64,000 nucleotides of DNA from an uncultured Clostridia bacterium (GCA_944345705.1 CALVML010000004.1:16965-80964), one strand, 5' to 3'; numbered from the stretch's first letter, positions 172-44,104 are shown. Numbers and translations: made by a program. The notes: generated by a model from the sequence alone, not told the origin.

Positions 172-190
172 AGAAATCTTTATGTATTAT

Positions 191-400
191 AAAAACGCCT
201 TGAATATTTAAAAATCAAGGCGCCAGACTGTAGACAAACTTCGCGACCGAAAAATTACGTGTAATTTTTCTTGCCTCGTTAACTGAAAAACGCCCAAAAC
301 CAGTCATTTAGGAATACTAAACTCCTGGCTTTGAGCATTTTTCGAGCCTTGCCTCGCTTGTTTCTCTACAGTCTGTTAATTTGTCGACACTCTGACGTAT
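191..400 (-). ncRNA. Candidate rod-shaped structured RNA with 6S-like architecture; family unproven
   Basis: Terminal arms 224-239 (cagactgtagacaaac) and 360-375 (gtttctctacagtctg) pair over 16 nt with one mismatch. Inner helices 285-303 with 325-343 have G-U pairs only on the minus strand (C-A on plus). Perfect hairpin at 249-270. Minus-strand intrinsic terminator: stem 196-203/215-222 followed by a T-run (A-run 191-195 on plus). No CDS. Confidence 0.3.
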
Positions 401-463
401 ATATAAATCAAGGTGCTTTTTGTTTAATAAATTGTTTTGTTTAATTTTTAATTTTTTAATTTT

Positions 464-1540: not shown

Positions 1541-1689
1541 TTTTAATATGATAACATATATTTTTTAATTTAAAAAACATTTTTCTATTATTTTAATTAT
1601 TTTAACTCAAAAAAATAAATTTATTTGTAAAAGGTGAAGTCATATTTATTTCGTTGACAAAAATAAAAAATAAAGATATACTTATTTAC

Positions 1690-2550: not shown

Positions 2551-3059
2551 TAATCATAGTTGGTCTTGGAAATGAAGGAAGTCTTTATCAAAACACATAT
2601 CACAATCTAGGCTTTATGACGGTTGATAGACTTGCAAAAAGGCTTGGTATCGAGTTTACTAAAAAGAAATATAAAAGCACAATCGCTTTAGGCAAGGTAA
2701 ACGGACAAAGTGTAATGCTTGCGAAGCCTTCAACATTTATGAATAACAGCGGACAGGCTGTGGTGATGATGAAAGAAAAATATAAAGATGCAAGAATTAT
2801 TGTTGTAGTCGATGATATAGATCTTGAAAAAGGAAAGATAAGATATAGACAGCATGGCCATAGCGGTACTCACAACGGTCTTCGCTCTATCACTTCCTTT
2901 ATAGGTAGCGAGTTTGAAAGGGTGAGAATAGGAATAGGTCGAGATGAAAGCAAGGACCTTGCCGACTTTGTACTTTCAAAGATAGACAAAAATGATCTTC
3001 CGCTTTTTGACAAGGCTATAGATGAGGCTTGCGATCTTATCATGGAGAAGATATCTTGA
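2547..3059 (+). CDS. pth: Peptidyl-tRNA hydrolase
   Basis: 170 aa. IIVGLGNEGSLYQNTYHNLGF and HNGLRSI motifs. ATGA overlap with the upstream gene. Confidence 0.9.
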   Translation: MIIIVGLGNEGSLYQNTYHNLGFMTVDRLAKRLGIEFTKKKYKSTIALGKVNGQSVMLAKPSTFMNNSGQAVVMMKEKYKDARIIVVVDDIDLEKGKIRYRQHGHSGTHNGLRSITSFIGSEFERVRIGIGRDESKDLADFVLSKIDKNDLPLFDKAIDEACDLIMEKIS

Positions 3060-6000
3060 AATTACTGACAGAGCAATTAGAAAATATCTATAAAAATAGG
3101 ATTATTTCTGGCGTAGGCGATGGAGAAAAGGTGATTTTGTCGCAAAAATTTGATCGCGTACTTTTTTTATGTAGTGATTTTGTAAGCGCTGGCAGAATTA
3201 AACGCGGACTTGAAGGTTTTGGAAAAAAAATCGAGATTATTTCTGCATCAAGAGAAAATAACGATGAATTAGACGCAAATCTCTTGCCATTTTCTAGTGC
3301 AATCAATCGCTACTTGCTTGGCGACACTGATGGCTTGATTTTTTTGCCATCTTCATTGCTTGTCAAGTTTGACAAAGAAAAGTTTTCCACCTTTGATATT
3401 AAAAAAGACTGCTCGTATGATCTTGATAAACTGCTAGCCACTCTTGCTGAATACGGCTATGAAAGGGTATCTCTCGTGCAAGAGATAGGTCAATTTGCAA
3501 GGCGTGGAGATATTTTAGATATCTATATGCCTATCTTCGACAATCCTATAAGAATTGAATTTTTTGACGATTTAGTCGAAAAAATCTATTTTTTTGATAT
3601 CATTTCAATGAAAAACACAGCCTCACTAGACAAGATATCAATCTGCCAGTGCAAAATGCCACTTGGTGAGAATAATGTCTTTGATCTTGATGGCGTCAAA
3701 TTTGTTGATCAACCACTTAAGATACAAGAAGAAATTGATCTGCTTTTGAAAAGTTATAGTATACTTACAAATTTTTCTCATGAAAACTATGCAAATTTTG
3801 ATAAAATGCTTGAAAAAAGTGACTATATTTTCGACAATACTCAGTATGAAAAGGATTGCTATTACAACGATCGAATAGCATCTCGAAGCTATTTGACCGA
3901 TTTTATGGCTTTAAAAAAGGATATTTTAGAGTATAAAAAACTGCATCAATCTATTATTCTCTTTGCAGGAAATGAAAAGCATAAACAAAATATAGAGAAT
4001 TTTCTTGTCGAAAATGGCCTTACTTTTCATGATGAAAGCGAAAATCGCTTGAAGCGAGAAGAAGTGTATGTTTCTTCTATTGCCATGCCTTATACCTTTT
4101 CATTTTTAAAGGAAAGGCTGATTGGAATAGGCGCGGATAACCTATTCAAAAGTACACTTTCAACATTTTCAAAAAGCAAGCATTCTGTATTCTATCTTCC
4201 AAAACTCAATGACTATGTTGTACATTCCTTTCATGGTATAGGCAAATGCATCAAAATTGAGAGAATGAAGATAAGCGATGTCGAAAAAGATTATTTCGTC
4301 ATTGAATATAAGAATGGTGATATCTTATATCTTCCAAGTGAAGAAGCGAATACCATCTCTGCTTACATTGGAAGTGAGCAACAGCCTAAACTATCTTCGC
4401 TTGGTGGGGCTGAATTTGCAAGACTTAAAGAGAGAGTAAGCGCTTCAATCAAGCAGATGGCAATAAGTCTTGTCGAAATCTATAATGAAAGACAAAAGGT
4501 CAAAGGCTTTGCATTCAAGCGCGATGAATTTTTGGAAAAGCAATTTGCAGATAGTTTTCCTTATGCACTAACAGTTGATCAGCAGAATGCGATAATTGAT
4601 GTCGATCGAGATATGGAAAGTGACAAGGTTATGGATAGGCTTATATGTGGCGATGTTGGCTTTGGCAAGACTGAGGTTGCCTTGCGAGCAATATTCAAAT
4701 GTGCATATAATGGAAAACAAGCCTGCTTTGTCTGTCCTACTACAATACTTTCACAGCAACACTATGCTACGCTTTTAGAAAGACTAGAGCCTTTTGGTGT
4801 CAAGGTTGAAGTCATCAATAGATTTAAAACTCCAGGGCAAGTTAAAGAGATCTTGCGTAGAACTCAAGAGGGCGATATCGATGTTTTAATCGGCACTCAT
4901 AGAGTTTTAAGCAATGATGTCATCTTTAAAGATTTAGGACTCTTGATCCTGGATGAAGAGCAGAGATTTGGTGTAGAACACAAAGAAAAGATCAAGGATA
5001 AAAAGCGAGATATTGATGTGCTTACCCTTTCTGCAACTCCTATTCCACGAACTCTCAATATGTCGCTTTCAGGCATACGCGATATTTCAGTCATTGAAAC
5101 GCCACCTAAGGATAGACTTCCTATTCAAACCTATCTTGCCCCGCAAAGTGATCAACTTATAAAAGATGTTTTATCGCGAGAACTTGCAAGGGGTGGGCAA
5201 GCATTCGTTGTATACAATCGCGTTGACAGCATTGATGAATTTGCCCTTCATCTTAAAAAATTACTACCAAATGCACGCATTGGTGTCGCACATGGTCAAA
5301 TGTCAGAAAGAGTGCTTGAAGATGTAATTGCAAAATTATATCAGGGGCTTTACAATGTCCTTATCTCGACTACTTTAATAGAAAATGGAATAAATCTTCC
5401 ATCTGCAAATACCATGGTCGTAATAGAGGCAGATAAACTTGGTCTAGGTCAACTTTATCAATTACGCGGAAGAATAGGGCGAAGTGATAAACTTAGTTAT
5501 GCATATTTGACATTTATAAAAGACAAAAATATTGGTGAAGAAGCATATAAAAGACTTGAGGCAATAAAGGAATTTTCAAGCCTTGGCAGTGGCTTCAAGA
5601 TTGCTATGCGCGATCTAGAAATTCGTGGTGCAGGCAATATATTTGGACGCGAACAACACGGTCATATTGCAAAGGTTGGATATGATATGTTCGTCAAGTT
5701 GCTTGATGAAAAAGTCAAAGAGATCAAGGGTGAAAAGGTATATAAGCCAAGTGAAGTAAAACTTGAAATTGCCTTAAGTGCATTTATAAGTGAAAAATAT
5801 ATTGAAGATAGCGATAAGCGTATTTCATATTATACAAGAATAAGTGAAATTCGGGAATTTGAAGAGATTAAAGAGATTTTATCGAGCCTTGAAAATGGCT
5901 TTGGCAATCCGCCTATCGAGATTGAAAATCTTTGCGTGCTTGCATATCTTCGCAATCTATCAGGTCAATATGGTGTTAAGAAGATAAGAATTAATAGGCA

Positions 6001-17114: not shown

Positions 17115-19775
17115 ATGATTAGAGTTATACCTAGAAGAACCAAAGTAAAACTTGAGTTTATGAAGGGCGTCACAGCGGTCGACCTTATTATTGGCGTGAT
17201 TGCTGTTGTAATTTTAATTGTACTTGCAGCATCAAACTTCTCAGGTCATATCTGGGTTGCAATGGTCTGGGCGATACTTGCCTTATCACTTTTTTTCAAG
17301 CTTGCCGATAGTGACAGATTTTATGTAACTCTTATGCACCTTGCAAGATTTTCGATGCAAAAGAAAAAGTATGTAAAAGTTGATAAGAAAGGTAAAGGCA
17401 ATATTAAAGATATCATTCCTTTCCAATCAATTTATCAAGATAGATGCATTGCCTATGGCAATTATTACGCAGAAGTTTTGGAAGTCAAACCAATTCTTTT
17501 TGACCTATTAAATGAGTATAGTCAAAACAATGTTATTGACATTGGTTTTGGTAATGCTTTAAGACGACTTGATGATAATCAAGTTTGTGAACTTGTAAAA
17601 GTCAATAAAGCAATGGTGCTAGATAGTTACATATACAATGAAAACAAAAAGTATGATAGACTTCTTGATCAACAGTTTGAAGGACAGATGTCACAAGAAG
17701 AGGTTGATGCTAGAGCTCCAATTCTAGAAGAGAGAGTTGCTTTCATTGAGGACAGGAATAGAACAAACAAAATCTATAAAGATTATTTCTATCTTGTAGT
17801 ACTCGGTAAAGACCTTGAAGCACTTGACAATACTATAAGTGGTATGGCAACACAGCTTGCATCTTCTTTAACTCCTGTTACCACCAAGAGATTGACGGGC
17901 AGTGAACTTGCAGTATTCTTGCGTGCCAACTATAATAGAGAGTTTAATGAGCGTGAGCTTGAGAGTATGCCGTTTTCAGAATTCATCAACTGGGCAACTC
18001 CTGATAAGATTAAATTTTCATCAGCAAAATACAATATTGATGGTCAAGGCTATCGAACTTATGTTGTTACTGAATATCCATTGCAGGTTGGAAATGCATG
18101 GGGTGCATCATTCTTCCTTCTTGACCGAACAAAAGTTGTCATGAAATTTAAGAAAGCGCCAAAATTTGAATCAGAAAAGAAGATTGATAAGGCTATCATG
18201 GATATGGAAACCAAGCTTTATAAAACTGGTAAGAGTAGTACTCGTATTGAACTTACTACACACCTTGAAACTCTCCGTAATCTTCTTGCAGAACTTAAGA
18301 ACAACAATCAGCAACTTTATGATGTAAATACATTTATTACTTGCGAAGAAGCAGCTCGAAAAGATGTTAAAGCGATGCTTAAACAGGAAGGCTTTAGATT
18401 TAGTGAAATGTTTGCAAGACAAATTGATGCTTTCATTTCCACTGGTATTTCAATGAGAGATAATATAAAGGAATATCAAAGAGGTATACCTACTTCAACT
18501 CTTGCTGGTGTCTTCCCGTTTGTATCAAGTGAATTGCAAGATGAAAATGGCTTCTATATTGGCGACAATGCTTATCCTGTGTTTGTCGATTTCTTTAGGC
18601 GTGATGCACAAAGAGTCAACTCAAACATGATGATCATTGGAAAATCTGGATCTGGTAAAAGCTTTGCAACCAAAACGCTACTTGCAAACTTTGCGGCTGA
18701 TAATACCAAAATTTTCATTTGTGACCCAGAAAAAGAATACTCAAAACTTGCCGATAGCCTGCATGGCAAACTTATCGATGTCGGCTCTTCACTACAGGGT
18801 ATAATTAATCCTTTCCATGTAATTCGAGCTCTAGATAAAGACGAGGATGAAAAGATTGGTGGAAAAGTTATAGAAAAACAAGATGACTCATTCAATCAGC
18901 ATCTTCAATTCCTTGAACAATATTTTAGAACTATCTTGGAAGGTATCTCGTCTGATGCGTTCGAGGTTATCAACTCACTTGTACTTGATCTTTATAAAGA
19001 ATTTAATATAGACGAAAATACAGAATTGAAAGATTTGAAACCGACAGACTATCCAACTTTCGATGACCTATATGCTTTGCTTCAAAGAAGACTGAAAGAG
19101 GCTAAAGAGGAGTTTGTGCTTAACAATCTTCGTGTCGCAGAAACATATATTAGAAAATTTGCAAGTGGCGGACGAAACTCTAACCTTTGGAATGGACCAA
19201 CTTCAATTGAAACAAACGAAAACTTTGTCTGCTTCAACTTCCAATCACTTATTGCAGGAAACAATGATATGCTTACCAACGCACAAATGCTTTTGGTATT
19301 TAAATATATTGAAAACGAGATCATCAACAATAAAGATTATAACAAGATACACAATACTAATAGAAAGATTATTGTTGTCGTGGATGAAGCGCACACTTTC
19401 ATTAACCCTAAGTATCCTATAGCGCTAAACTTCATGACTGCAATGGCTAAGAGAATTCGTAAATATGGCGGTATGCAGATTGTTATTACTCAGAACATCA
19501 ACGACTTCGTAGGTTCAGAAGAAATCAAAAGACAATCAACTGCGGTTATTAATGCCTGCCAGTATTCAATGATATTCTCGCTATCGCCAAACGATGTAAA
19601 CGACCTTATCGAACTATATAAAAACTCGGGTGGTATTAATAAGGAAGAGCGTAACAGAATTGTTTCAGCATCTGTTGGTCAAGCGTTTGTTATTACATCG
19701 CCGACCGCTCGTACCATGGTGCAAATCCGTCCACTTGATTATGTAGTTTCAATCTTCAAAGAGAAAAACGAATAA
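17115..19775 (+). CDS. virB4: VirB3/PrgI-like two-TM segment fused to a VirB4/TrsE-family type IV secretion ATPase
   Basis: 886 aa. TM helices VDLIIGVIAVVILIVLAASNF and IWVAMVWAILALSLFFKL. Walker A MMIIGKSGSGKSFATK, Walker B IIVVVDEAHTF, GGMQIVITQNINDF. An ~500-aa pre-ATPase region is typical of VirB4. GAGG RBS. Confidence 0.75.
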   Translation: MIRVIPRRTKVKLEFMKGVTAVDLIIGVIAVVILIVLAASNFSGHIWVAMVWAILALSLFFKLADSDRFYVTLMHLARFSMQKKKYVKVDKKGKGNIKDIIPFQSIYQDRCIAYGNYYAEVLEVKPILFDLLNEYSQNNVIDIGFGNALRRLDDNQVCELVKVNKAMVLDSYIYNENKKYDRLLDQQFEGQMSQEEVDARAPILEERVAFIEDRNRTNKIYKDYFYLVVLGKDLEALDNTISGMATQLASSLTPVTTKRLTGSELAVFLRANYNREFNERELESMPFSEFINWATPDKIKFSSAKYNIDGQGYRTYVVTEYPLQVGNAWGASFFLLDRTKVVMKFKKAPKFESEKKIDKAIMDMETKLYKTGKSSTRIELTTHLETLRNLLAELKNNNQQLYDVNTFITCEEAARKDVKAMLKQEGFRFSEMFARQIDAFISTGISMRDNIKEYQRGIPTSTLAGVFPFVSSELQDENGFYIGDNAYPVFVDFFRRDAQRVNSNMMIIGKSGSGKSFATKTLLANFAADNTKIFICDPEKEYSKLADSLHGKLIDVGSSLQGIINPFHVIRALDKDEDEKIGGKVIEKQDDSFNQHLQFLEQYFRTILEGISSDAFEVINSLVLDLYKEFNIDENTELKDLKPTDYPTFDDLYALLQRRLKEAKEEFVLNNLRVAETYIRKFASGGRNSNLWNGPTSIETNENFVCFNFQSLIAGNNDMLTNAQMLLVFKYIENEIINNKDYNKIHNTNRKIIVVVDEAHTFINPKYPIALNFMTAMAKRIRKYGGMQIVITQNINDFVGSEEIKRQSTAVINACQYSMIFSLSPNDVNDLIELYKNSGGINKEERNRIVSASVGQAFVITSPTARTMVQIRPLDYVVSIFKEKNE

Positions 19776-19808
19776 CACCTAAGTTATGCCTATCAAAAAA
19801 GGAGTAGA

Positions 19809-22800
19809 ATGACAAAATCTAAAATATTTTCAATTTTAGCTCTTGGACTTATGCTTGTTTTGGCAGGCATTCTTTTTGTTGCTTGCGGTAGTAATGGTTA
19901 TAAAAATGTAACTGTTACAAGTGATCGTGATAGCATAACTTTGTTTGTAAATCAATCTGACGATTCTAGTAGTGAAGATGACGAAGGCGCTACAACAATC
20001 ATTTCTGAACTCGTTACTTTTACAATCAATAATCCTGTTGGTAATATGGACAAATCACTCCGCATTACTGTTTCTAATCCTAGCATTTGTCAAGTCAATC
20101 TATACAGTAGACAAAACAACTCCTCAACCTATGAAATCATAGGCTTGAAGGGTGGCACTACTCAGATTGAAGCAAAAACTCTAGAAGGTAACAAATCTTG
20201 TACAATTACTATCAATGTAAGGCAATATTCTAATAATCTATCACAAAACTCAAACTCGCTCTACGTTTCTCCGTCAAGTGCATTGATTCCAAATGCTTCT
20301 GATTTCATCTTTGACGACAGCGCAACTGAGAGAGATTTAGATTTCTATTTCTATGGCTCTACTTATGACGGCTACATTCTTACTGAAACAGATTTAATGG
20401 CTAACGGTGAATTTATCAATCAATTTACTCAAGCTAATTTAATCACTGTCAATGGCAATTATTATATAATTTTCCAAGATGAAAACGGCGCATTATTTAC
20501 ACTCTATGATAGAGAAGAAATAATAATTGACGATGAAAGATCAAACTTTGTCTATCAATTTATGCCTGTGACTTATGAAAACGGCGAGTATTCATTTGAT
20601 TTGGAATCTGCAATAGCTGTGCAACCTGGAGATTCATTCAAGTTTGGTGCAGTTTATCAAAAGAGTGAATCAGAAAGGCTTGTTTGTGCAAGAGATTTTT
20701 ATGTACTTATAGATATAGATTACCAAAGCGTTGCACATGAATATGGCTATAGAATAATGGAATATACCTATGACATTGGTACAGATGTTTCATACAAACT
20801 TGATGAACAAAAGAATGGTGATATTACCTTTATTCCTTCTTATTCAATTGTTATTGAAGATAATCCTTTACTATTTGGATACACAGCAAGTTTTGCAACT
20901 ATATATCTAAAAGTTTCAATCAACTCAACAAGTGATCTTATCAAAGAAAACTTCTATCTTTCTGATGCCAGCCTCGAATATGCAAACTGCACAAAACTTG
21001 GCTCGCTTGTTGAAGATGGAGTCACAACATATTTTTATGAAATAAATTGCTCTACAAATAAGAATATAACTACAGAATTCAATGTAAATTTCTATTATGA
21101 TGGCTTTGAAAATAGTCAAGACGATAATGTCAATTTTACTTATACTATTCCAATTATCGTAAGGACTGTTCCTAATACAATTTTAGTAAATAATATCGAC
21201 TTGAACTCAGTAGAAAGAGTGCATACTTTCTATAATCACTATGCTGGTTCTTCTTATGGCTGGCAAGAATTTGTTATAAGTGTTATGCCAACTGATGCAA
21301 GTTACACAAATCTTCAAATTGATTTGACAGGCTCTCAACTGCAGTTGAGATATAACGATAGAACTTATGTAGATGAACTTGTAACTATTAATGATCTTTC
21401 AAGTCCTATCTATTTAAAAGGAAAGGACGGGGCAGAGATTACAGAAGAAGATGCTCAAGAAAGTTTACAATTTGTTCTAAACTATGACGTACTCGGTCCT
21501 GAAACATGCACAGTAGATTTTGATTATGTTATTGCTCAGGGTGCAACTGCATTAAACTTTAACACAACAGAGTTTCAAGAGGGAATTTATCTTGATATCA
21601 ATGATGGTTACCTAGATTTTACCGATATCTATGCTGATGCTCCATTTGAGTCATTTACAATTCAGTACTCATCTGGTGAAGATATAGCAACCTTTGATAT
21701 CAATTCACTTAATCCATATATTACATATCCAAATGAAGAGGGCAAATATTTCCTTAATTTTAGCATTAGTGCCTTTGCGCTATCAAGTCAAGGACTAAGT
21801 GGAACATATACAATAACTCTTGACAATGGTCAAAGAATCTCACTTATTATTACCTCAATTGAAGCCTTAGAGAGCATAAATGTTTCAACCTCTAATGTAA
21901 ACGCAAATGTGCAATATACTCAATATGTTGAAAATGATGGACAGCAGACGGGTGTGCTCTATTATGCTTATAATAATTTGTCAAATTCATATTTTGATAT
22001 ATCAATTGTCGCAAATGGCAATGTTAATTCGTCTGGTATTAGAAGTGTAAGTTTTGGCGACTTCTCATCTACAAGTATATCTCTTAGTGACGCTCAAAAT
22101 TCAAATAAAAACTTTAATATAAATCTTATCGCAAATGGCTCAACCGACATTCCAATTTCAATCTATGGTTATAGCGTAAGGAATTTTGCTCGTGAAGAAT
22201 ATGTTATCAATTACAATATTCATGTAGTTGTTTTTAACTATGTCAACAAGTTAAACATATATAAAGAAAAAGACGGATTTGGCACTTATAGAGATGAATC
22301 AAGTGGTGTAGAGAGTGTACGAGATTATGGCGTAAATGCTGCGTATATTGATGTCTACACAAATACCACTAAAAATGACGCTTTAACTGCAGTTTTAAAT
22401 TATAACATTGAAAACGAAAATGCTTATCTATTTTCAAACCCTATATATCTTTCAAATCCTAATAATTCCTATGAAGAGCAAAGTTTTGATCAAGGGTATT
22501 TGTACTGGACAGTCACTGATGCTTCAATAACACTCAACAATAGCCCTGTTGACTATATGTATCTAAATAGTAATGGCAACAATGTATATGTTATTACTGG
22601 AATTGGTACATTTAACACTGAAACACTTGAATTTGTTGCTTTCCAAAACAATACAAGTTCCATTCAGTTTACACTTACTGCACATGTTAGACAATTTGCA
22701 AGGACTTTCTCATTTACTATAAATGTAAGGATAAGTGTATATCAAAATGTGGAGCAAATCTCATTGCAAGAAGGAATTGATTCTCTTGAATTTTCTTCGC

Positions 22801-25800
22801 TTAATAAAGAGCATTCGCTTGTTGCCTATGCTGTTGGTGAAAATGCCACAAACAACGAACTTAAAGCATTTATAAGTGGCGGAGTAATCGTAGTAAACGG
22901 AATAAGTTATACATTATTAGACGAAAATTCTATCTCTACAATTGAGAGTGATGGCAGATATCAATTTACTTTTACTGCAAATCCTAGTTTCATTGAAGCG
23001 GCTGAAGGGTATGAAGAAGAAATCTCTGCTACAATTACAATAGTTGCGACTGACTGGCTTGATGAAGCAGATAATGTCATGCCGACATATCAAGACAGAG
23101 TTATAACTATACGTGTAAGTTATGCTAATGGTACAGAGTTAAATCGCTTTACTCTTTCATCGGCACAAGATGTACTTGCAATAAAAGATAATCTATCCGC
23201 TCATTACAAAATTGGTACAACTATAGATATTTCATCTATTAGTTCAAGCTTGCCACTTGGACAATTCAATGGTTCAATCATTGGTATAAATCAGTATGCT
23301 AAAATTACAGGTATCAATATTACCAATAATACATCGAACTATTATGGTCTATTTACAGTACTTGGACAGGATAGTTATATTGAATATATCTCTTTTGAAG
23401 GAAGCATAAACATAGGTCAATCGGGTGACACTTCTACTTATGCTGGAAATGATAGCAAGATAGGACTTCTTGCTGGTGAAAATTACGGACATCTTATAAA
23501 TGTAAATGTGACAATCAATACATCATCTGTCTATATCTATTCAGGATATGTTGGTGGTATTGTTGGAATTAATTATGGTGAAATTTTACAAGATTTAACC
23601 TTGTTCGAATCGGCAACAAGTCAAACTCGCTCACTAAACGAAAATCAATTGGCAAGTGGCGGAACAAGCATTGTTGGAAAGGGCAGAAGAATGTATGCTG
23701 ATTTCTCGCCTAACATCCCTGCTTATTATAACGGATATTTGACTGTCAACTATGTATCAACAACTGTAGCACAAGGTGGATACAATACTTATGTTGGTGG
23801 ACTAGTTGGCATGAATGGTACAACAACTATAAGCGCAGACGACAGTCAAGTTACATTTATAGGCTCAATCAAAAAGATTGATAGTACTGGTGCATCCGGT
23901 CTTTCTCTTACAGGCTACAGCAATTATACAGCCTATGTTCTTCTTCGTGCAAATAAGTTATCAGGCTCAGGTAGCTATCCTAATACCCTTAAAATAGGCG
24001 GTCTTGCTGGTGAAAGTGTTGTATCAGCTGGTGAAAATGCGAATAATATTGTTGCAGGCTACAATACAAGTACAACTCAAGGTCAATCTGCAACCGTAAC
24101 TTTTAACAAGTATTCAAATTATAAGTATTCAGACTCCTCAGGCATTTCTACTGGTAATTTTACAGCTGGCAATGGTATAATCGTTGGTGGCAAGATTGAA
24201 GGTTATGATTATGTTGGCGGTGTAGTTGGATATATAGGAAGTATAGACAACAACACAAATTTCATAGGAATAACTTCTCGTGCATTCGTTAAAGGTCTTG
24301 CAGTTTCAAATGATTATACAAGAACTGCAATCATTGCAAACATCAATGCATTAGGTACGAATATATATTTATCATCAGCTTATGCTATTCAAGCAGTTGA
24401 TGATGGTGGTTATGGTGCAGACGCATCAATGATGGTGATTCAAAGTACAGACAAAGTCGCTGATTATTATGAAGATCCTTCGGATATTGACAATAGCGAG
24501 ATAGATGCCGATAAATTAGCCTTTGGAACTTTGCTATCGACTAACATATCTGATATAATGTATCGTCATGATGATGAGTTGAATGCAGGTATAGACAGTG
24601 ACGCTAGTTATACCAATGTCTGTTCTTTTGTAACTTCAAGAAATAAGATTTTTATAGAAAATTCATCAACTATTTCGACTACATCAAGGGCTCAATATTA
24701 TGGCGACTATATTGTTGCAAGTGATAATGATACTCAACTTATAGATCAAACATATTTTGCAGAAGGCGATGAAAGTGTAATGTCGGTTAGCGGGGCATTT
24801 AACAATAAAATGATCAGCGGAGATAGTTCACAAAAAGAAATATATTATATGTTCTATTTCCAAACTGCAAGCACAGATATCACTCAAGATGATGACGCAC
24901 AGTCACTACTAGATTCATATATTAATAGATACAATGTTTCAAGTATACTTTATCCTTTGATAATAAATGGAGAATTGACATTCACATCTCGCAACACTGA
25001 TATATTGACTATTGACGCACAGGGCAATATGACTGCTAGGGCAAGCGGACTTGTGCAGGTTGTTGGAACTAGTGTGCTTAATCGCAACAATGCGGTTGAA
25101 TTCTATATCTATGTGACAAACTATTTCAACCCTGATCAGCCAAGCTTTACAAATAGTGATAGTGAAAATTACGAAAATGTGTCTATTATATATCCAAGTG
25201 GTTCTACTTCTGGTACACCTATAGATGACACAGTTATCAATTTACGCGGAAACAACAGTGCAAACCTTGTTGTTCAGCCTTATTATTCATTAAATCTTTC
25301 TGTGGCTACAAATAGTCAAGTTTCATCATTTAATGTGGCTTCTGATGGATCAGTTAGTTTTATGAATAAGAGTTTTAATATTTCAAACAACAGCAATGTT
25401 TCAGCAGTTATTACACGAGCAACTCGCGCTGGTGCTAACGAAAATGAAATTATAGAAGCACTTGATGAACTCCACATCTCTTATGTCGGACAAAATATTT
25501 CTATTAGAAAAAACGATAAGACCGAAAGCACTATATATTCTTTGACGATTGTACCAAGATTGCAGGTGCAAGTTGAAGAAAATGGCTCAAATATATCATA
25601 TTATTCTAGTGTAAACAAGACAATTACAGATACAACCTTACAATACAACAAGGGTGCGTCAAGCATCAATCATGTACAATATGAAGAAGTGACTCTCTTC
25701 TCATCAAGAGAGATAAGTGAAACAATAGAAATTATTTCCGATGTTAAAGAGGAAAATCCTTATTACTATATTACTGACAGCAACGGAAACATTTTGCAGG

Positions 25801-28800
25801 GAAGTCGAGAACTCGACGAGATGTTTGAGCAGGAATTTGCTATGGATGCAGGTAATGGCGTTCTAGCATCAATGCTCTTTAGCGTTACATTTACAAACAT
25901 CACTGGTACAGTAGATTTGACTAAAGCTCAAAGCTTCTCACTTTCTGTAGCAATCAACAAAAACTCAGACTTATATAAGGATAGATATAATCAAGATATA
26001 TATGGTGATTATACAATATATATTTTAGCATCTTCCAACACCGAAAAATTCACATCATTTACAATTCACTTTGAACAGACAGGCATAACTTCAATAATTG
26101 TAGATAATTATTCAAATCTCAATGACGCTATTTCAAGCACAGGTATTGGTGCTACAAGTGAGTACGCATATCCTGGACAAACAGGCTTTATTGCAATCAC
26201 AATTAATCCTGACGATGCTGACTTTGACTATATTGTTATTGAGAATGATGCTCAAAATTATCAAACTGGAAATTCAAGTGCAACTTTTGGCTTACTTGCT
26301 AGAAAAAGTACATCTGATGGTGGATCAGAGATATTCGAAGATGATAGAATTATAGGTCAAACTACAGATACAGGGCTTATTGTCAATCTTGAGGATATCG
26401 TAAATTATTATGGCGAAACTGATCCTAAAACTTCAAACAATAATTACTATATTTATAATGGTGTTATCTATGTTAAGTATGATTTTGGCTCGCTAAATGT
26501 CAATGACGAAAGCGTTTCTTATATAAACATCTCGCTCTTTAAAGACGGACAACAAGTTTATGAAACAATAAGAAAACCTGTAACAATCAAACTTCAATAT
26601 TATGTTGCTGTAGATATAGTAGGCAAAGAGCCACTTTCGGCAAATGATAGTGCATATTATGCTTCATATCAGGTTGCAAGGGGACTTCGCTATGAACTAG
26701 CAGTGAATTCCTATGGTTTTAGTGCTGAGAATATAAATATAAGCCTATCAAATGAAAATCTCGGCTCAATTATACAAGAAAATGGAAGATATTATCTGCA
26801 GATTACAAATCAAAGCATTGACTACTCGCAAGCAGGAAATAATGTTTTGAATATAACTGCAAATGCATCTCAAGCAGATGGTGAAAATATAAGATCGGCA
26901 AGTAGTACGACGCACATTGAAATACTTGAGTTTGTATTTAACTACAATAAGGACACTTCATCTGAAACCGAAGATCTTGTCAGTGGTATGGGTGATGGAA
27001 TTATAAATGTGCAGGTTGGAACTCAGACAACATTTGCGATTGATATGTACGATTATATCGAATACGACTCAACCAGCCTTGATATCGTCAATAGAATTAA
27101 TAATTTCTTTAGCGAATTAACATCGAGCGGTGAGTGGAAGGCTCATACTAATCTTATCAATGATACACTGCCAGACTATGGTCAGGCTGTTGAAAATATG
27201 AATGGTAGAGAGCAGTATATATTAGCAAACGGTGTACAATTAGAAACATACTATTTTAATTCTAATGGATTAAATGTCACACCTGTAAGAACTCATGACA
27301 GTAGTGATTTATTCTATTTCTTTACTTATACTGGAGGCTATGAGATCCAAAATGGTCTTTATGTAGCAACAAAAGATGCAGATGCTCTTCCTATTAAAAC
27401 TAGATTTGTACTTAATGTATATTCTTCAAGCAGTGAAGATAGTCCACTTCCTATATATGATTATGAAGACTTTATCAATATGCAACAAGGTCAGTACTAT
27501 ATTCTATTAAACGATATTGTATTGCCAAATGCAGATAATGAAAGTACGGGTGTGACTCGCTTCACTCCACTTACTGGAAACTTTGCATCGCTTGATGGCA
27601 ATGGTCATACTGTCATCTTCTCAGGCACCTATGATATGGGCTCTCTAAGTTCGATCGGTGTTTTCTCAAGCCTTGCGCTTGATAGCCAAATCAAAAACTT
27701 AAATGTTCGATTTGCTTTTGCGTCTAATGGCTCCGATATGAATGATAGTGAAACAGACGATGGTTATCAGCTAGGAGGACTGCGAACTGTTAAATTTATT
27801 ACAACCGCATCGTCATTCAGTTTTGCAGGACTTGTTGTGCAAAACAATGGTATAATCACCAACTGCCATGTTCAAACTGAGTCAAATTACACCTCAGAAT
27901 TATACATTGCAGTCATAGCAGATAATGCCTCAACAGGCTCTTATGTAACAGGCTTTGTTGCGCAGAATAGCGGATATATAACAAATAGCAGTGTGCGTGT
28001 AAATATCAAATCTCCATTTAGAATTGGTGGGTTTGTAGGTACAAACACTGGCAAGATTGCAGCATGTTACTTTAGAGAAGGCAAGATTATCAACAACTCA
28101 AATCAAAATCAATATGCAGCAGGTTTTGCGTATTCAAATGGCGAAAATGGACAGATTATTACAAGCTATGTTTCAGGCATGACAAGTTCATCAAGTTTAT
28201 ATTCACTTGATAGAAATAGCTATGTCAGTGCAAACGAAAGAGGCGCGGGCTTTATCTATCAAAACTTGGGCTATATTAGTGATTGCTACACAGATATATA
28301 TCTTGCTGTTACACCAAATATGGCTGGCTTTGTATATGCTAATGGCGGACAAATCAAAAATTCTTTCTCACTCTCTGTCCTAAGCAATCTAAACTCTGCA
28401 GCTGCTGGTTTTGCCTTTGAAACAACTGTAACTACAGGCACCGATGAAGGTAGTTCAGGTGTATATACTGGCGAATTCTCAAATTGCTACTATTTCTATA
28501 ACGAACAACAAGGAACAATAGGAAATAACACTGTAGAAATTGCTGATAACGGATTCCTTACTAATACTGAAGATATTAACACATCATTGCAAGAGCGTAA
28601 TTTTGAGGGTGTATCAAAATTAAATGCTGGTCAATTCTATAATGTAGATGAAAATTTTGCAGATTTTGCCTACTCATCAACTGCAAATGCGAGTGCTGTT
28701 TGGTTCTTCAGTAGCGGAAATGCAAATTCTAATTTTGTTGATTATACTCCTACTACCGAAACTACCATTGTAGGTGGCGAGAATGGTCAAAATCAAGTTA

Positions 28801-39161: not shown

Positions 39162-39192
39162 TAAAGATAAGTTTAATACTTTTAAATAGCAA

Positions 39193-39225
39193 AAAAGGCA
39201 TATTTTGAAATATGTCTTTTTTTTC
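39193..39225. terminator. Bidirectional terminator after rpoC
   Basis: Stem aggcatatt / aatatgtct (one mismatch) flanked by A6 and T8 runs. Confidence 0.6.
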
Positions 39226-39234
39226 AATGTTTAA

Positions 39235-39774
39235 TTATATTAATTTTAACAAGTCTTCAAATGTTGTATAACCTGCATTCTCGTTAAAATGTCCGGCATT
39301 TTCATATATATAAGTTTCTGCTTTAATTGCTTTGGCAAAATTTTCCAACGCATCTATTTTTACATAAGGATCATCTTTACTATATATGCAAATTCTTTTA
39401 TTACATAAATCAATAAATTTATATATTTCATCTGTATACATATCTTTATTAATTTTGTCAAAGTTTTCTAAGGAAAAATAATTGTTACAGCCACTTACAA
39501 ATATGCATTTTTCAATTTTTAGATTATTGTTTATACAATATTTAGCAAGAAATACACATCCAATGGAATGACAAATAAAAACACTTTCTTCATTTATCTT
39601 ATCCTTTACTTGATCTAAGACCTTTGACCAATTTTCAAAATTTTGTCCATTCGGAGTAGGATAATTAAAATTGAAAACATCATATCCTTTTTGTTTAATT
39701 TTTTCTTCCAGCCAAGGAAACCAATTCTCTTTGTTATGACCATACGATCCATGAATTATAAAATAATTTTTCAT
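39235..39774 (-). CDS. YdeN/RBBP9-type alpha/beta serine hydrolase
   Basis: 179 aa. FIIHGSYGHNKENWFPWL start and nucleophile elbow ICHSIGC. Confidence 0.6.
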   Translation of the reverse strand: MKNYFIIHGSYGHNKENWFPWLEEKIKQKGYDVFNFNYPTPNGQNFENWSKVLDQVKDKINEESVFICHSIGCVFLAKYCINNNLKIEKCIFVSGCNNYFSLENFDKINKDMYTDEIYKFIDLCNKRICIYSKDDPYVKIDALENFAKAIKAETYIYENAGHFNENAGYTTFEDLLKLI

Positions 39775-39844
39775 ATAAACACCTTAAAGTATTTTAGCAC
39801 AATATTTTTAAATTTCCTACCAATAAATTGAATTTTAAAATTTT

Positions 39845-39926
39845 CAAATTAAAATAAAAAGCCTCTTGACAGGGGGGGGGAATGTGATATAATCACAAAG
39901 TAAAAAGATAAAAAGGAGATTAATTT
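39845..39926 (+). repeat. Copy 1 of the duplicated promoter/5' UTR module
   Basis: caaattaaaataaaaagcctcttgacagggggggggaatgtgatataatcacaaagtaaaaa is identical to 40583-40644. Similarity continues through the RBS into the CDS. Confidence 0.9.
39866..39893 (+). promoter_or_regulatory. Consensus sigma-A promoter with a G9 tract in the spacer
   Basis: TTGACA 39866-39871, G9 39872-39880, aatgTGa, TATAAT 39888-39893 (extended -10 TGaTATAAT). Spacer 16 nt. Confidence 0.65.
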
Positions 39927-40484
39927 ATGAAAAAGACAAATAAGAAAAGCAGAGGTATATTAAAAAATGCTGATCACTTTACATTAAGTCATGGTCTTAA
40001 ATTATTTAGTGCTATATCGATAATAGGTCCAGCTCTGTTTCTATTCGGCGCGGGTATTACATATGGTCTTGCACGCGAGGAAGGCAGATCTAAAATTAAA
40101 GAAACTAGTGATTATAATAATTACTCGTTTGAATATAGGCGAGTTATTAATGAAAATGAGTTTTTGACTCAAGAAGATAAACAAAATTTAACTGAAGAAA
40201 GTCATGTATTTGATAGTTATATTGAAGGTAATCTAGATGAACCACTTGTTCAAGCTTATATTCAAGAGACTGATAAAAAAAGTAAAACTTTATCTGGAGC
40301 ATTGGTAACTTTCGGTGTGTCGGCAATGTTAGCAGAAGTATCAATGATAGCAGCAGGAAAAGTCAGCATTAAAGAAGATGCCGATAATAGAAAAAATAGA
40401 ACTGATTTGAGTGAAGTTGGATTTACTGATGATAAAGAAGAATACATTGACTTTGATGAAGAGAATATTAATTTAAGGACATAA
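39927..40484 (+). CDS. Small two-TM membrane protein, paralog A
   Basis: 185 aa. AGGAGA RBS. Basic N-terminus, TM1, conserved core SKIKETSDYNNYSFEYRRVINEN...DEPLVQ, TM2, acidic tail. Paralog of 40664-41206. Confidence 0.65.
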   Translation: MKKTNKKSRGILKNADHFTLSHGLKLFSAISIIGPALFLFGAGITYGLAREEGRSKIKETSDYNNYSFEYRRVINENEFLTQEDKQNLTEESHVFDSYIEGNLDEPLVQAYIQETDKKSKTLSGALVTFGVSAMLAEVSMIAAGKVSIKEDADNRKNRTDLSEVGFTDDKEEYIDFDEENINLRT

Positions 40485-40542
40485 TAAGCATATTAAAATT
40501 CAACTTTGATATTTTAAAATAAAATCATATTTATAAAATATC

Positions 40543-40575
40543 AAGCATACTATAAATTTCTTAGTATGCTTTTTG
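40543..40575 (+). terminator. Intrinsic terminator between the two paralogs
   Basis: Stem aagcatacta (40543-40552) / tagtatgctt (40562-40571) followed by a T-run. Confidence 0.6.
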
Positions 40576-40582
40576 TAATTAT

Positions 40583-40663
40583 CAAATTAAAATAAAAAGC
40601 CTCTTGACAGGGGGGGGGAATGTGATATAATCACAAAGTAAAAACATAAAAGGAGACTAATTT
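40583..40663 (+). repeat. Copy 2 of the duplicated promoter/5' UTR module
   Basis: Identical to the 39845-39906 core; see copy 1. Confidence 0.9.
40604..40631 (+). promoter_or_regulatory. Consensus sigma-A promoter with a G9 tract in the spacer
   Basis: TTGACA 40604-40609, G9 40610-40618, aatgTGa, TATAAT 40626-40631. Spacer 16 nt. Confidence 0.65.
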
Positions 40664-41206
40664 ATGAAAAAGAAAAATAAGACAAGTTATGGAATTTTAA
40701 AATCTGCTGGCAACATTGCACTAGGAATTGCTCCATTTGTATTTGGTGTAATAGCGATAGGTTCATTTCCTCTATATGTCATTGCTGCGGCTTTCGAAGC
40801 AGATAATTCTAAAATTAAAGAATCCAGTGATTACATTAATTACTCGTTTGAATATAGGCGTGTTATTGATGAAAATGATTCTTTAAGTCAAAGAGATAAG
40901 GAAAAATTAACTGAAGAAAATTATATTATTGAGAGATATATCGAAGATAATCCAGAGGATCCACTTGTTCAGGAGAAAGATAAAAAAGGGGAAATTGCAT
41001 TTGGAGCCATCTCTGCTTTTGTTGCATCTGCGTCATTAGCGGTAGGATCAGCTATAGCAAATAGCATAAAATATAGAGAAAATGAAGACTATCACATGAA
41101 TAATGCGATTGGCAATAATAAAGATAATAACATTTCTAATAATGATAATCTTATAGATGGAGAAGACATTGATCTTTTAAATAGTGATATTAGCTTTAAA
41201 GTATAA
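40664..41206 (+). CDS. Small two-TM membrane protein, paralog B
   Basis: 180 aa. Core SKIKESSDYINYSFEYRRVIDEN...EDPLVQ shared with paralog A. Asn/Asp-rich divergent tail. Confidence 0.65.
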   Translation: MKKKNKTSYGILKSAGNIALGIAPFVFGVIAIGSFPLYVIAAAFEADNSKIKESSDYINYSFEYRRVIDENDSLSQRDKEKLTEENYIIERYIEDNPEDPLVQEKDKKGEIAFGAISAFVASASLAVGSAIANSIKYRENEDYHMNNAIGNNKDNNISNNDNLIDGEDIDLLNSDISFKV

Positions 41207-41229
41207 AATCTCATAAGAAATTATAAGAT

Positions 41230-42147
41230 TTAATCGCTTCTTATTCCTTTTATTACAGGCTGGCGCATATTTCCATCTTTTGTTAGCATTATATATTGAA
41301 CGGTACAAACAAGTTTAGGTTTTATCCATACAATATCTTTTTCATCTTTGAAAATTTCAGAAAAAGGTTTTTTACTTTTGTTTTGTAATGCTGTAGTTAA
41401 AAGTAGAGATTTTTCTTGCTGTGAAAGTCTTGCAAACATCTTTGCTTTATATACGAGCTTATTCTTTTCTTGTTTTGCAAGTATTAAATCTTTAACACTT
41501 CCATCTTCAATTGTTAAACCAACTATAAAAAAGTCTTCATCATGAAGATTTTTTATTTTTATCCATTCATTCGATCTTTTTCCAAGCTTGTATTTGGCGT
41601 CTTTGCGTTTTGCAACTATTCCTTCTAGACCAAGATTTTTAGTTTGATTAAAAAGGGCAATGCCTTGATTTTCGATAAAGCGCGAGATGCTAATATATTT
41701 ATTTTCTTTAATTGCTTTAAATAGCAATTTTTTTCTTTCCATTTGATCAAGATTTGTCAAGTTTTTGCCGTCATAATACAGGATATCATAAGCGACAAAA
41801 TTTACAGGAGCTATTTTGGATGCCATTTCAATTTTAAATTTATCGTTAAGTAAACTTCGTTTTTGTAAGGCAAAAAAATCTGGGAAGCCATTTTTGCCAG
41901 TTACGATTATTTCGCCATCAAGAATGCATCTTGCATTTGCTTGTTTATGAATTTCGCGGAGTTCTGGATAAATAAGGGTAATATTCTTGTTTCTCTTATT
42001 GGCTAGAATTGTTTTATCTTTGTCAAGATATGCTATGCACCTTATGCCGTCAAGTTTCAGTTCAAATATATAGTTGTCATCGTCAAAAGGCTCCCTTATC
42101 TCTTTCAAAAGCATAGGAGAAATGTTTTTTTGTTCGAAAAGATCCAT
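41230..42147 (-). CDS. ligD: ATP-dependent DNA ligase, ligase domain only (LigD-type NHEJ ligase)
   Basis: 305 aa. Motif I ELKLDGIR, FVAYDIL, EGIVAKR, WIKIK. No polymerase/primase or phosphoesterase domain. 3-nt gap to ku. Confidence 0.85.
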   Translation of the reverse strand: MDLFEQKNISPMLLKEIREPFDDDNYIFELKLDGIRCIAYLDKDKTILANKRNKNITLIYPELREIHKQANARCILDGEIIVTGKNGFPDFFALQKRSLLNDKFKIEMASKIAPVNFVAYDILYYDGKNLTNLDQMERKKLLFKAIKENKYISISRFIENQGIALFNQTKNLGLEGIVAKRKDAKYKLGKRSNEWIKIKNLHDEDFFIVGLTIEDGSVKDLILAKQEKNKLVYKAKMFARLSQQEKSLLLTTALQNKSKKPFSEIFKDEKDIVWIKPKLVCTVQYIMLTKDGNMRQPVIKGIRSD

Positions 42148-42150
42148 TTT

Positions 42151-42996
42151 TTATGCCTTCTTTTTCAAATTTATCATTTCGCCTTTTTTAGCGATATTCT
42201 TTTCGTCTTTTTTCTTTTTATTTTCCTTTTTCTCTTTGACCAAAGTGACAGATTCTTTCAGTGCTTCCATTAAATCTGTTATCTTGACGGTTTTTTCTTC
42301 TTTAACTTTCTTTAATTTGTTTCCATTTGCTTTATCAAGTATGGCTTGTCTTATTCTCATTGTATACTCATCTTTATAGTCTTCGGCATGAAAAGAGTCT
42401 GTCATAGATTTGACGATAGTTTCAGCTAGGTCTACTTCTTTTTTATTTATCTCCACTTTCACTGCAATTGCAGGATTAGCTTGTACTTCTTCGTCAAAAA
42501 ATAATCTAGATAAAAGTAGATCATCATTTCTTACCCAAAGTGCAACAACGCACTCGCTACTTCCAAGTATTGTCTTTGCAATTCCTACTTTGTTTTCCTT
42601 TTCAAGCACATATTTGAGAAGATAGTATGCTTTTTCAGTGGCTTTGTTTTCTGGAACGACATAGAAGGTTTTATCAATATAAATAGGATTTATTTCTTTC
42701 AAATCGACAAATTTCTCTATGATAATACTCTTATCTTTTTTGCCTTTTAGTTTGTCAAGTTCTTCTTGATCAAAAATCACATATTCACCATTGTCTAAAT
42801 GATATCCTTTAACTATATCTTCATTTTTCACTTCTCGATCGTCACAATCTACACAGGTCTTTTTGTATTCCACACGTGATTTTGTCTTTTTGTCTATAAG
42901 ATTAAAGCCTATGTTGTTGTCCTTGATTGTGCTATGCAAGGTTATTGGAATATACACAAGTCCAAAAGCGATTGATGTTTTGTAACTGTAAGCCAT
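42151..42996 (-). CDS. ku: Ku DNA end-binding protein
   Basis: 281 aa. SIAFGLVYIPITLHS start and a lysine-rich C-terminal tail. Confidence 0.9.
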   Translation of the reverse strand: MAYSYKTSIAFGLVYIPITLHSTIKDNNIGFNLIDKKTKSRVEYKKTCVDCDDREVKNEDIVKGYHLDNGEYVIFDQEELDKLKGKKDKSIIIEKFVDLKEINPIYIDKTFYVVPENKATEKAYYLLKYVLEKENKVGIAKTILGSSECVVALWVRNDDLLLSRLFFDEEVQANPAIAVKVEINKKEVDLAETIVKSMTDSFHAEDYKDEYTMRIRQAILDKANGNKLKKVKEEKTVKITDLMEALKESVTLVKEKKENKKKKDEKNIAKKGEMINLKKKA

Positions 42997-43128
42997 GATA
43001 TCTCCTTGCTAGTAGTATTTGTAAAAAGGAGATTTTCATGACAAAAATTTAATCAAAATAATCGACATTTTTTATAAGTATAGTAATAAGTTTTTCACTA
43101 TTTTAATAAAACAATGCCTTGCGTTCTT

Positions 43129-43318
43129 TTATTTATCCATTGATTTTTCAATTAGAGTTTTAAAGATATCATTAAATTTATCTTCTTCGTCTACTAATAA
43201 TTCGGGATGGAATTTTACTCCTATAAGAAACTTTTTTTTTGGCTTCTACTACTTCAACTTGTCCATCGTCAGAATATGCGACAATTGATAATTTTTTAGG
43301 TATTTTTGTACCAATATA
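43129..43318 (-). pseudogene. Remnant of a class-I glutamine amidotransferase / peptidase C26-type gene: 5'-truncated and frameshifted
   Basis: Minus-strand translation gives ...IGTKIPKKLSIVAYSDDGQVEVVEAKKK in one frame and FLIGVKFHPELLVDEEDKFNDIFKTLIEKSMDK* in another. The frames join across the T9 run at 43232-43240. GV(Q/K)(F/W)HPE is the C-terminal GATase-I signature. The N-terminal ~2/3, including the catalytic Cys, is absent. Confidence 0.5.
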
Positions 43319-43427
43319 TTAAAAAAGTCTTTTATTATAATTTGAGATTGAAAAAAATTATTAATTAATAAATAAATTGATGTTTCTATTTTTAAATAGT
43401 AAAAAAACAAGAATATTTTTCCAAATT

Positions 43428-43484
43428 TTCGAACCGCATGGCGTAAATATAATAGAATTTTTAAAAACAAAGTCGCACTAAATG
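43428..43484 (+). repeat. 57-nt conserved block, copy 1; inverted partner at 62409-62465
   Basis: Hand alignment gives 44/57 identical, with the last 24 nt at 23/24 (ttaaaaacaaWgtcgcactaaatg). It contains TATAAT at 43448-43453. Confidence 0.7.
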
Positions 43485-43680
43485 CTTTAACTAAGGGTAC
43501 CCGCAAAATCAAAGATTTTGTGGGAAAGGAGCAAACGAGCGTAACCGCGTAAAATTACAAGGTAATTTTCGCCTAAGCGTAGTTTGTGACGCGGTTTGGT
43601 CGCGAAAACACCCAAAAAATGCAGGCATTTTCAGGTAACCCACGAACCCAGGGGTTCGATTCCCCATACTCACATAATAA
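43460..43680 (+). ncRNA. Candidate structured non-coding RNA ending in a tRNA-Glu T-arm copy; family unknown
   Basis: No credible ORF. An 11-bp hairpin at 43500-43524 has a G-U pair only on the plus strand. Hairpin 43551-43569. Helix 43544-43550/43589-43595. 17-nt T-arm copy at 43649-43665, then terminator 43682-43720. Possible -10 at 43448-43453. Confidence 0.35.
43649..43665 (+). repeat. Inverted 17-nt copy of the tRNA-Glu T-arm
   Basis: caggggttcgattcccc on plus equals the sense T-arm of the minus-strand tRNA-Glu (its complement is at 43735-43751). The arms are 69 nt apart. Confidence 0.9.
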
Positions 43681-43681
43681 A

Positions 43682-43720
43682 AAAACTAGAAACTCGATAA
43701 TATATCAAATTTCTAGTTTT
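43682..43720. terminator. Bidirectional terminator between the ncRNA candidate and tRNA-Glu
   Basis: aaaactagaaa (43682-43692) / tttctagtttt (43710-43720). Confidence 0.7.
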
Positions 43721-43722
43721 GC

Positions 43723-43797
43723 TGGTAGCCTCAAGGGGAATCGAACCCCTGATTCCGCCGTGAGAGGGCGGCGTCTTAACCGCTTGACCATGAGGCC
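43723..43797 (-). tRNA. tRNA-Glu (anticodon CUC), CCA encoded
   Basis: The reverse complement folds as a cloverleaf: GGCCTCA acceptor, anticodon stem CCGCC/GGCGG with loop CTCTCAC, T-arm AGGGGTTCGATTCCCCT, then ...GAGGCTACCA. Confidence 0.9.
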
Positions 43798-44104
43798 ATG
43801 TTAAACCTTAATTAATATATCATATTATCTTTGATTTTGCAATCTTTTTTGAAAATTTTTTCTTAATTTTTATTTTGCGTTTATCTAAATTTTGTTTATA
43901 ATCTAATTATATAAAAATATTAAAATAGTTTTATGGAAAATAATATTTTAATACTTTTTATTTTCTATTGAATGTTTAACAAATATTTTTAGGTATATTC
44001 ACATAGTTAATATGTCAAAAAATACTACAAATTCTATATATTTATATATAAAACCATCAATGTGAAATTGTCACGCTTAGTTTTGATAATATAGTGGAGG
44101 AGTA

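Follow-up and report, generated by a model that had tools for sequence, protein, structure and literature searches.

In a 64,000-nucleotide stretch of DNA from an uncultured Clostridia bacterium (hereafter the window; GCA_944345705.1, CALVML010000004.1:16965-80964), two tandem genes for paralogous membrane proteins are each preceded by a copy of the same promoter module, and in both modules a run of nine G residues (G9) stands directly behind a perfect -35 hexamer and ahead of an extended -10 element. The two genes, each taken together with its promoter, are called P1 (coding region 39927-40484) and P2 (40664-41206). The sequence agrees perfectly with a predicted placement of the G tract between the two hexamers of a SigA-type consensus promoter, and the length of the tract differs among strains. 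We regard the pair as a credible new instance of a homopolymer-in-promoter-spacer locus, of a kind not previously reported from this lineage or in association with these proteins. The chances appear evenly balanced that it is a locus of the kind known from porA, opc, and vlp, in which slippage would retune each paralog in a graded fashion and gene conversion would couple the two modules.

Structure and rarity of the promoter modules

Copy 1 (39844-39906) and copy 2 (40582-40644) of the promoter/5'-leader module, both on the plus strand like the other elements of P1 and P2, are identical over exactly 63 nt and consist, in this order, of an A-rich upstream stretch, TTGACA, G9, AATGTGA, TATAAT, and the start of the leader; a wider repeat of 81 nt is 95% identical between the copies. 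At P1, sequence matching places the -35 hexamer at 39866-39871, the G9 tract at 39872-39880, at the head of a 16-nt spacer (39872-39887), and the extended -10 element, composed of TGTG (TRTG, the -16 region), an A, and TATAAT, at 39883-39893; from the spacing of these elements we infer that transcription starts near 39899-39900. At P2, the corresponding positions are 40604-40609 for the -35 hexamer, 40610-40618 for the G9 tract, again in a spacer of 16 nt, and 40621-40631 for the extended -10 element. Measured against TTGACA-N16-TATAAT preceded at the -10 hexamer by TG, the two copies reach 12/12, with no other perfect match in the window, in agreement with an initial interpretation made from the DNA by eye (hereafter the sequence-only reading), which had described consensus promoters with an extended -10 element and with G9 in a spacer of 16 nt. 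The 31-nt promoter core is matched twice in the window, compared with 0 matches expected from 100 shuffles. The Shine-Dalgarno sequence AAGGAG (39913-39918 for P1) sits 8 nt 5' of the ATG in both genes alike. An intrinsic terminator of P1 is predicted at 40545-40575, formed by an 8-bp stem (AGCAUACU/AGUAUGCU) followed by UUUUUG; this stem-loop had been missed by a simple terminator scanner, and the fold of 40482-40600 has a z-score of -3.6. Because the stem-loop and the U run stand between the two genes, P1 and P2 are predicted to be separate transcription units.

Runs of seven or more G residues, of which 0.44 would be expected in the window, are confined to the two promoter sites. The spectrum of G/C run lengths over the 64 kb comprises 15338 runs of one residue, 2607 of two, 206 of three, 44 of four, five of five, none of six to eight, and two of nine, so that the tracts of P1 and P2 are the sole G/C runs longer than five in this DNA of 33% G+C content, in line with the early remark that a G9 run is conspicuous in so AT-rich a genome. 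Their length also lies in the range (about eight or more G/C) taken to characterize a hypermutable simple sequence repeat (SSR). An invertible promoter (inverton) was considered as another source of variation and rejected, with merely weak AT-rich inverted repeats being present (74-88% complementary, ~645 nt apart, spanning the whole P1 gene) and a single orientation occurring in all assemblies. An Rfam scan of the window returned nothing but tRNAs.

Tract length across strains

The locus was compared in 36 records, that is, the window and 35 public assembly contigs, one of which (L003) is apparently the window's own contig; this comparison among related strains is based on consensus assemblies, and both promoters could be read in 32 of the 36 records. 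A G-rich tract of 8-11 nt is retained at both promoters in every record. At P1, the tract is G9 (spacer 16 nt) in 16 records, G4TG6 (18 nt) in 10, G10 (17 nt) in four, and TG9 (17 nt) and G8 (15 nt) in one record each; at P2, it is G9 (16 nt) in 30 records, G8 (15 nt) in five, and G6TG (15 nt) in one. The check proposed in the sequence-only reading, whether related genomes have the tract in a conserved position with a variable length, thus gave a positive outcome, with G8, G9, G10, and interrupted forms setting spacers of 15-18 nt, and the tracts of the two paralogs vary independently of each other across strains, as had been envisaged.

The G10 tract at P1 is shared by L034 and L037, two contigs that were obtained in different studies with different assemblers, and by a separate clade (L045/L050), and the G8 tract at P2 is found in L001/L002, L010/L017, and L059. 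Contigs only 2 single-nucleotide polymorphisms (SNPs) apart per 2.9 kb differ in having G9 or G10, and G8 and G9 are each found on two different module haplotypes; the A7 and T7 runs that the alignment also covers are invariant. Because the multi-copy variants (G10, G8 at P2, and G4TG6) are recurrent in independent assemblies and follow the flanking-SNP tree, they are heritable and not random miscalls. At least one promoter has the 16-nt spacing in 32 of the 32 records with both promoters read, a pattern that comprises too few independent events to be put to a test.

Duplication and gene conversion

Three positions distinguish the two modules in most strains, namely, A/G, C/T, and A/T, the last directly after the tract. 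In the window strain, L003, and L006, the P2 module bears the P1 states at these three polymorphic positions, and other strains show mosaics, which indicates gene conversion between the modules. The duplicated module of the sequence-only reading is therefore an exact copy as stated, with a length of 63 nt instead of ~62 nt, and its exact identity is strain-specific, the copies differing at 2-3 positions in most other strains; the exact duplication reflects a recent strain-level gene conversion event, and selection as its cause is unsupported. Although the paralogs are old, as judged from their synonymous divergence, the 90 nt upstream of them are nearly identical in all strains and far more conserved than the synonymous sites of the paralogs, and selection on the promoter and leader probably acts beneath the gene conversion. 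In the Logan contig L059:1-1260, the hydrolase gene is followed by a hybrid P1/P2 module (G8) and then by P2, without P1; the modules have either recombined by unequal crossover in this case, or the 80-nt repeat was collapsed during assembly.

The P1 and P2 proteins

The P1 gene encodes a protein of 185 aa with a basic N-terminus, a first transmembrane (TM) segment at residues 22-49, a charged loop of ~72 aa, a second TM segment at residues 122-144, and an acidic tail. Its paralog P2, with 180 aa, has hydrophobic segments at residues 11-47 and 109-135 and an Asn/Asp-rich tail. The two proteins align over 142 aa with 49% identity (E 1e-36), diverging at dS (synonymous) of ~0.6-0.7 and dN (nonsynonymous) of ~0.35-0.39. 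In both, the N-terminus has a net charge of +5 and the TM segments are connected by a strongly charged loop of ~70 residues. Analyses of open reading frames and hydrophobicity thus confirm the paralogs of ~180 aa with basic N-termini, two TM segments, and tails that are acidic in one and Asn/Asp-rich in the other, as they had been read from the sequence by eye. According to the positive-inside rule, both termini would be cytoplasmic and the charged loop of ~70 residues would face outward; the loop is probably helical. An AlphaFold2 model built on a 15-sequence alignment had a mean predicted local distance difference test (pLDDT) score of 38 and was unusable.

The proteins could be assigned to no family by eye, and the same was found in all the collections searched. 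Pfam gave no match above the cut-off (best, DUF4834, E 0.061), profile searches of NCBIfam, PADLOC, and PDB gave no match, and PHROGs gave nothing usable (best, phrog_33624, E 0.004, a family of unknown function). A profile of both paralogs run against 1.84 billion representative proteins recovered their own two clusters, one marginal protein of 6474 aa, and nothing else; two word-indexed searches returned allelic variants and nothing further, and no homologue was found among the GTDB representative genomes. A class II holin was also considered and rejected: such holins are small proteins of ~65-100 aa with a charged C-terminal tail, two closely spaced TM helices connected by a short turn, and lysis genes as neighbors, whereas P1 and P2 have 180-185 aa and a loop of ~70 residues and are surrounded by rpoC, hydrolase, LigD, and Ku genes with no endolysin, and no holin match was obtained in PHROGs and none in viral contigs.

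P1 and P2 are real genes under purifying selection. Each allele recovered is intact, and the ratio of nonsynonymous to synonymous diversity among strains (piN/piS) is 0.41 for P1 and 0.25 for P2, compared with 0.17 for the flanking hydrolase and 0.16 for the ligase. No sign of diversifying selection on the loop was seen, the variable residues of P2 being few and mostly located in the predicted cytoplasmic tail. The suggestion that the proteins are surface-exposed and that their variation serves immune or phage evasion is hence unsupported, the alleles being conserved at a piN/piS of 0.25-0.41.

Predicted mechanism and alternative explanations

In the predicted mechanism, each paralog would be transcribed from a near-consensus promoter of the housekeeping sigma factor (SigA type), in which the G run takes up more than half of the spacer. 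Replication slippage would add or drop a G and move the spacer among 15, 16, and 17 nt, and the interrupted variants would give fixed spacers of 15, 17, or 18 nt. The -35 hexamer would then be shifted relative to the -10 hexamer, leading to a heritable reset of the transcription strength of each paralog, and gene conversion between the promoter copies would keep the modules alike and could also reset the tract. We expect that a graded 'volume control' results rather than an on/off switch because the -10 element is extended. On/off switching, which had been put forward beside graded expression, is thus disfavored; the TRTG/extended -10 element should leave the promoter partly active, and strains with spacers of 16, 17, and 18 nt share one intact P1 allele (P0004). 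Within this mechanism, the use of the promoters from the predicted start, an effect of tract length on expression, a raised switching rate within populations, and any adaptive value are putative.

Several observations weigh against slippage-driven retuning, and some of them favor another explanation, possible if rather doubtful, in which P1 and P2 have strong constitutive promoters and the G tract is a passenger that drifts neutrally, is inherited with the module, and is kept alike by conversion, with expression barely affected. Across strains, the length of an intergenic T8 run downstream of rpoC (39217-39224) is 6, 8, or 9, and in the 23-sequence set used for the homoplasy counts, the numbers of Fitch changes were 5 for this T8 control, 5 for the P1 tract, and 1 for the P2 tract. 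The variation of the tracts is therefore what any long homopolymer shows, because the T8 control at the same locus is equally variable, and the special status at first accorded to the G tracts is unsupported in this respect; they are distinctive in their placement and in existing at all in this genome, not in their variability. Homoplasy was considered as a proof of hypermutation, and this argument is weakened both by the T8 run and by strain recombination, which raises homoplasy at ordinary sites too, 24 alignment columns having at least three changes. Moreover, L035, L036, L039, and L041, which are 0 SNPs apart, all have G9 at both promoters, and the consensus length is thus stable among identical strains over that timescale. 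Interrupted tracts, presumably of greater stability, persist (G4TG6 in a large clade, TG9, and G6TG) and have become fixed in whole clades, which argues against strong selection for a mutable tract. The P0004 allele is intact and identical behind the 16-, 17-, and 18-nt spacers, and the P1 gene is presumably still used at each of these lengths. The extended -10 element itself lowers the dependence on the -35 position. Finally, the two tracts are not independent occurrences, because they share their ancestry through duplication followed by gene conversion, and the evident conversion between the modules is also in line with a passenger tract. Neutral drift is, however, difficult to reconcile with the retention of a G-rich tract of 8-11 nt in all 36 records, since G9 should erode fast in a genome of 33% G+C, or with the conservation of the upstream 90 nt, far exceeding that of the synonymous sites of the paralogs. 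In addition, the length of the spacer is known to affect the strength of sigma-70-type promoters.

The G run may instead be a recognition element, either the operator of a regulator or a spacer contact for sigma factor or RNA polymerase, that is kept for its sequence, with changes in length being mildly deleterious. The G-richness kept at the tract position in all strains and in both paralogs and the conservation of the whole module including its flanks would be explained in this manner, as would the recurrence in unrelated metagenomic contigs of TTGACA directly followed by at least seven G residues and an extended -10 element. However, neither a dyad nor a second half-site is seen, the adjacent genes encode Ser_hydrolase, LigD-type ligase, and Ku and no regulator, large clades tolerate both length variants and a T interruption, and many of the matches to the TTGACA-G7+ pattern lie in high-GC DNA, where G7 is unremarkable; we consider this explanation quite unlikely. 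It is highly improbable that the variation is an artifact of sequencing or assembly, with the lengths of homopolymers called wrongly and assemblers misled by the duplicated module. In favor of an artifact, homopolymers are error-prone in sequencing, contigs L062 and L063 begin within or just past the module, and L059, a contig with a single gene, may have arisen by repeat collapse. Against it, each of G10, G8 at P2, and G4TG6 occurs in at least two independent samples or assemblers, consistently with the flanking-SNP tree, and the A7/T7 runs in the alignment never vary.

Comparison with known systems and similar layouts

The closest parallels to the proposed promoter-spacer switch are found in Neisseria. 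In meningococcal porA, with a poly-G tract between the -35 and -10 hexamers, and opc, with a poly-C tract, expression varies through promoter G/C tracts. Such G/C tracts in promoter regions, including the intergenic C tract of fetA, constitute one class of SSR-mediated phase variation in Neisseria, and the mutability of a tract increases with its length (PMC5953494). The meningococcal porA and opc loci and gonococcal fetA, with a poly-C tract, resemble the present one in having a G/C homopolymer of ~9-14 nt in the core promoter, where a change of a single base alters the -35/-10 spacing, and they are characterized by graded multi-level expression, by products that are envelope proteins, and by tracts that are polymorphic among strains. 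In contrast, the present locus belongs to an uncultured lineage of gut Clostridia with low GC content instead of a proteobacterial pathogen, the promoter combines a full TRTG/extended -10 element with a perfect -35 hexamer, and the module is doubled in front of tandem paralogs and homogenized by conversion; the products are small predicted inner-membrane proteins without relatives, and the switch is a predicted one.

The tandem arrangement is reminiscent of the vlp genes of Mycoplasma hyorhinis, in which a poly-A tract occurs in the promoter of each paralog, the length of the tract sets transcription, and the Vlp products are abundant, repetitive, size-variable surface lipoproteins under immune pressure. 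Both systems consist of adjacent membrane-protein paralogs, each with a conserved homopolymer promoter module, and the independent variation of the vlp paralogs is predicted here as well; unlike Vlp, P1 and P2 are not lipoproteins and contain no repeats, their alleles are conserved, the tract consists of G and not A, and there are only two paralogs. In hifA/hifB of Haemophilus influenzae, TA repeats are located in overlapping divergent promoters. There too the repeat lies in the -35/-10 spacer, and its copy number sets the spacing and the output, as is predicted for the present tracts, whereas the hif repeat is a dinucleotide in a shared bidirectional region and the present tracts are mononucleotide runs in two separate unidirectional promoters. 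In a Gram-positive gut commensal, Bifidobacterium breve, the repeat tract of the pilus loci is reportedly intragenic. For the sortase-dependent pilus loci of this organism, an ON/OFF switch based on replication slippage, with variation inside populations detected by deep sequencing, has been described (PMC9187656). The two systems are alike in a slippage-based switch, a predicted one in the present case, in a gut bacterium and differ in that a graded effect of a promoter-spacer tract is expected here in place of an ON/OFF pilus switch. Literature searches yielded no description of this locus or of any SSR-based promoter switch in Clostridia.

A pattern search of Joint Genome Institute (JGI) metagenomes for TTGACA-G7+...TGnTATAAT returned 45 contigs, many of which mean little because they match in high-GC DNA. 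One of them, L083:1-7401 (UMAI01019924.1), from an organism of 43% GC, contains tandem autotransporter paralogs of 732 aa (12-2210, minus strand) and 913 aa (2631-5372, minus strand), both with a PF03797 beta-domain, behind identical promoters (TTGACA-G7-ACATAGTGC-TATAAT) in which the spacer measures 16 nt and the -10 element is extended, and constitutes an independent example of the same predicted layout in an unrelated organism. A further speculation, which we consider unlikely, is that the P1/P2 pair is a coupled two-channel dosage switch for a new membrane-protein family, in which slippage would retune each paralog separately and gene conversion between the modules would reset them, and that the layout of TTGACA, poly-G, and extended -10 ahead of tandem envelope-protein paralogs hints at a general, unrecognized design of graded phase variation among gut and environmental bacteria other than the classical pathogens. 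Poly-G directly after TTGACA and before an extended -10 element also occurs in other low-GC metagenomic contigs, namely, L104:17-45 on the minus strand (G12, 17-nt spacer), L107 (G8), L108 (G9), and L076 (G7AGGG). The G9/C9 runs present near rpoC in metagenome-assembled genomes (MAGs) of a sister genus (L026:13999 and L027:12936) were rejected as counterparts, as they are coding runs for Gly-Gly-Gly, unrelated to promoter tracts; the encoded protein is SIS-domain-like in one case and M16-peptidase-like in the other, and both runs could cause frameshifts.

Programmed heterogeneity in gut commensals has been cataloged mostly as DNA inversions, and slippage switches are known mainly from pathogens and from a few actinobacterial commensals. 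If confirmed, the P1/P2 locus would place a repeat-based transcriptional switch in uncultured Christensenellales-like Clostridia and would provide a starting point for the study of two conserved membrane proteins that, judging from 1.84 billion representative proteins, are limited to one species. The strains also provide a natural test set of 15-, 16-, 17-, and 18-nt spacers on otherwise identical consensus promoters, a series that would show how far a Gram-positive promoter with a TRTG/extended -10 element depends on the spacing of the -35 hexamer. If the tract is neutral, the locus would merely consist of two genes without known relatives and a duplicated promoter of unusual strength ahead of them.

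Organism and genomic neighborhood

The C-terminal part of RpoC encoded in the window is 99% identical to that of the uncultured Clostridia MAG BRZ_B__bin17, and its relatives at 78-92% identity come from MAGs labeled Christensenellaceae, Christensenella, Eubacteriales, or Clostridia, gut (human cohorts, mouse gut, and deer colon) being the source wherever one is stated. The genes are arranged in the order rpoB, rpoC, Ser_hydrolase (minus strand), P1, P2, LigD-type ligase (minus), Ku (minus), tRNA-Glu (minus), and patatin. In sister species, the rpoC-patatin interval has other cargo and lacks the entire block from the hydrolase through P1, P2, and the ligase to Ku. BRZ_B__bin17, which is the GTDB representative MAG of the species, has a deletion of 1.88 kb (window 39350-41227 compared with L018:11680-11705) that takes out P1 and P2 along with their two promoters and extends over the first 142 hydrolase codons; its junction shows no repeat. 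Because the two genes are deleted in the GTDB representative of the species, P1 and P2 are dispensable, and they belong to an islet downstream of rpoC that varies among strains and species. A prophage or mobile-element origin was rejected, as the module was not found in viral contigs and no phage-like neighbors are present.

Some further features of this region were noted. The deletion in BRZ_B__bin17 directly adjoins the Ku and LigD genes. In a comparison of L019, L022, and others, the rpoC-patatin interval (window 39162-44104) appeared as a hotspot of variable cargo, which in sister species comprises unrelated small genes, including those for an XRE-like regulator, an SGNH-like hydrolase, and a TM2-like protein. 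A GATase/Peptidase_C26 gene, coding for 217-234 aa, lies between Ku and patatin in many strains (e.g., L034, L035, and L011); the 1.1 kb at 42997-44104 of the window contains tRNA-Glu (43723-43797, minus strand) and lacks this gene in intact form. Directly upstream of rpoB, the region 17115-31457 encodes a TraG/VirB4-like P-loop ATPase of 886 aa, followed by an open reading frame without a Pfam match that extends over 3882 aa.

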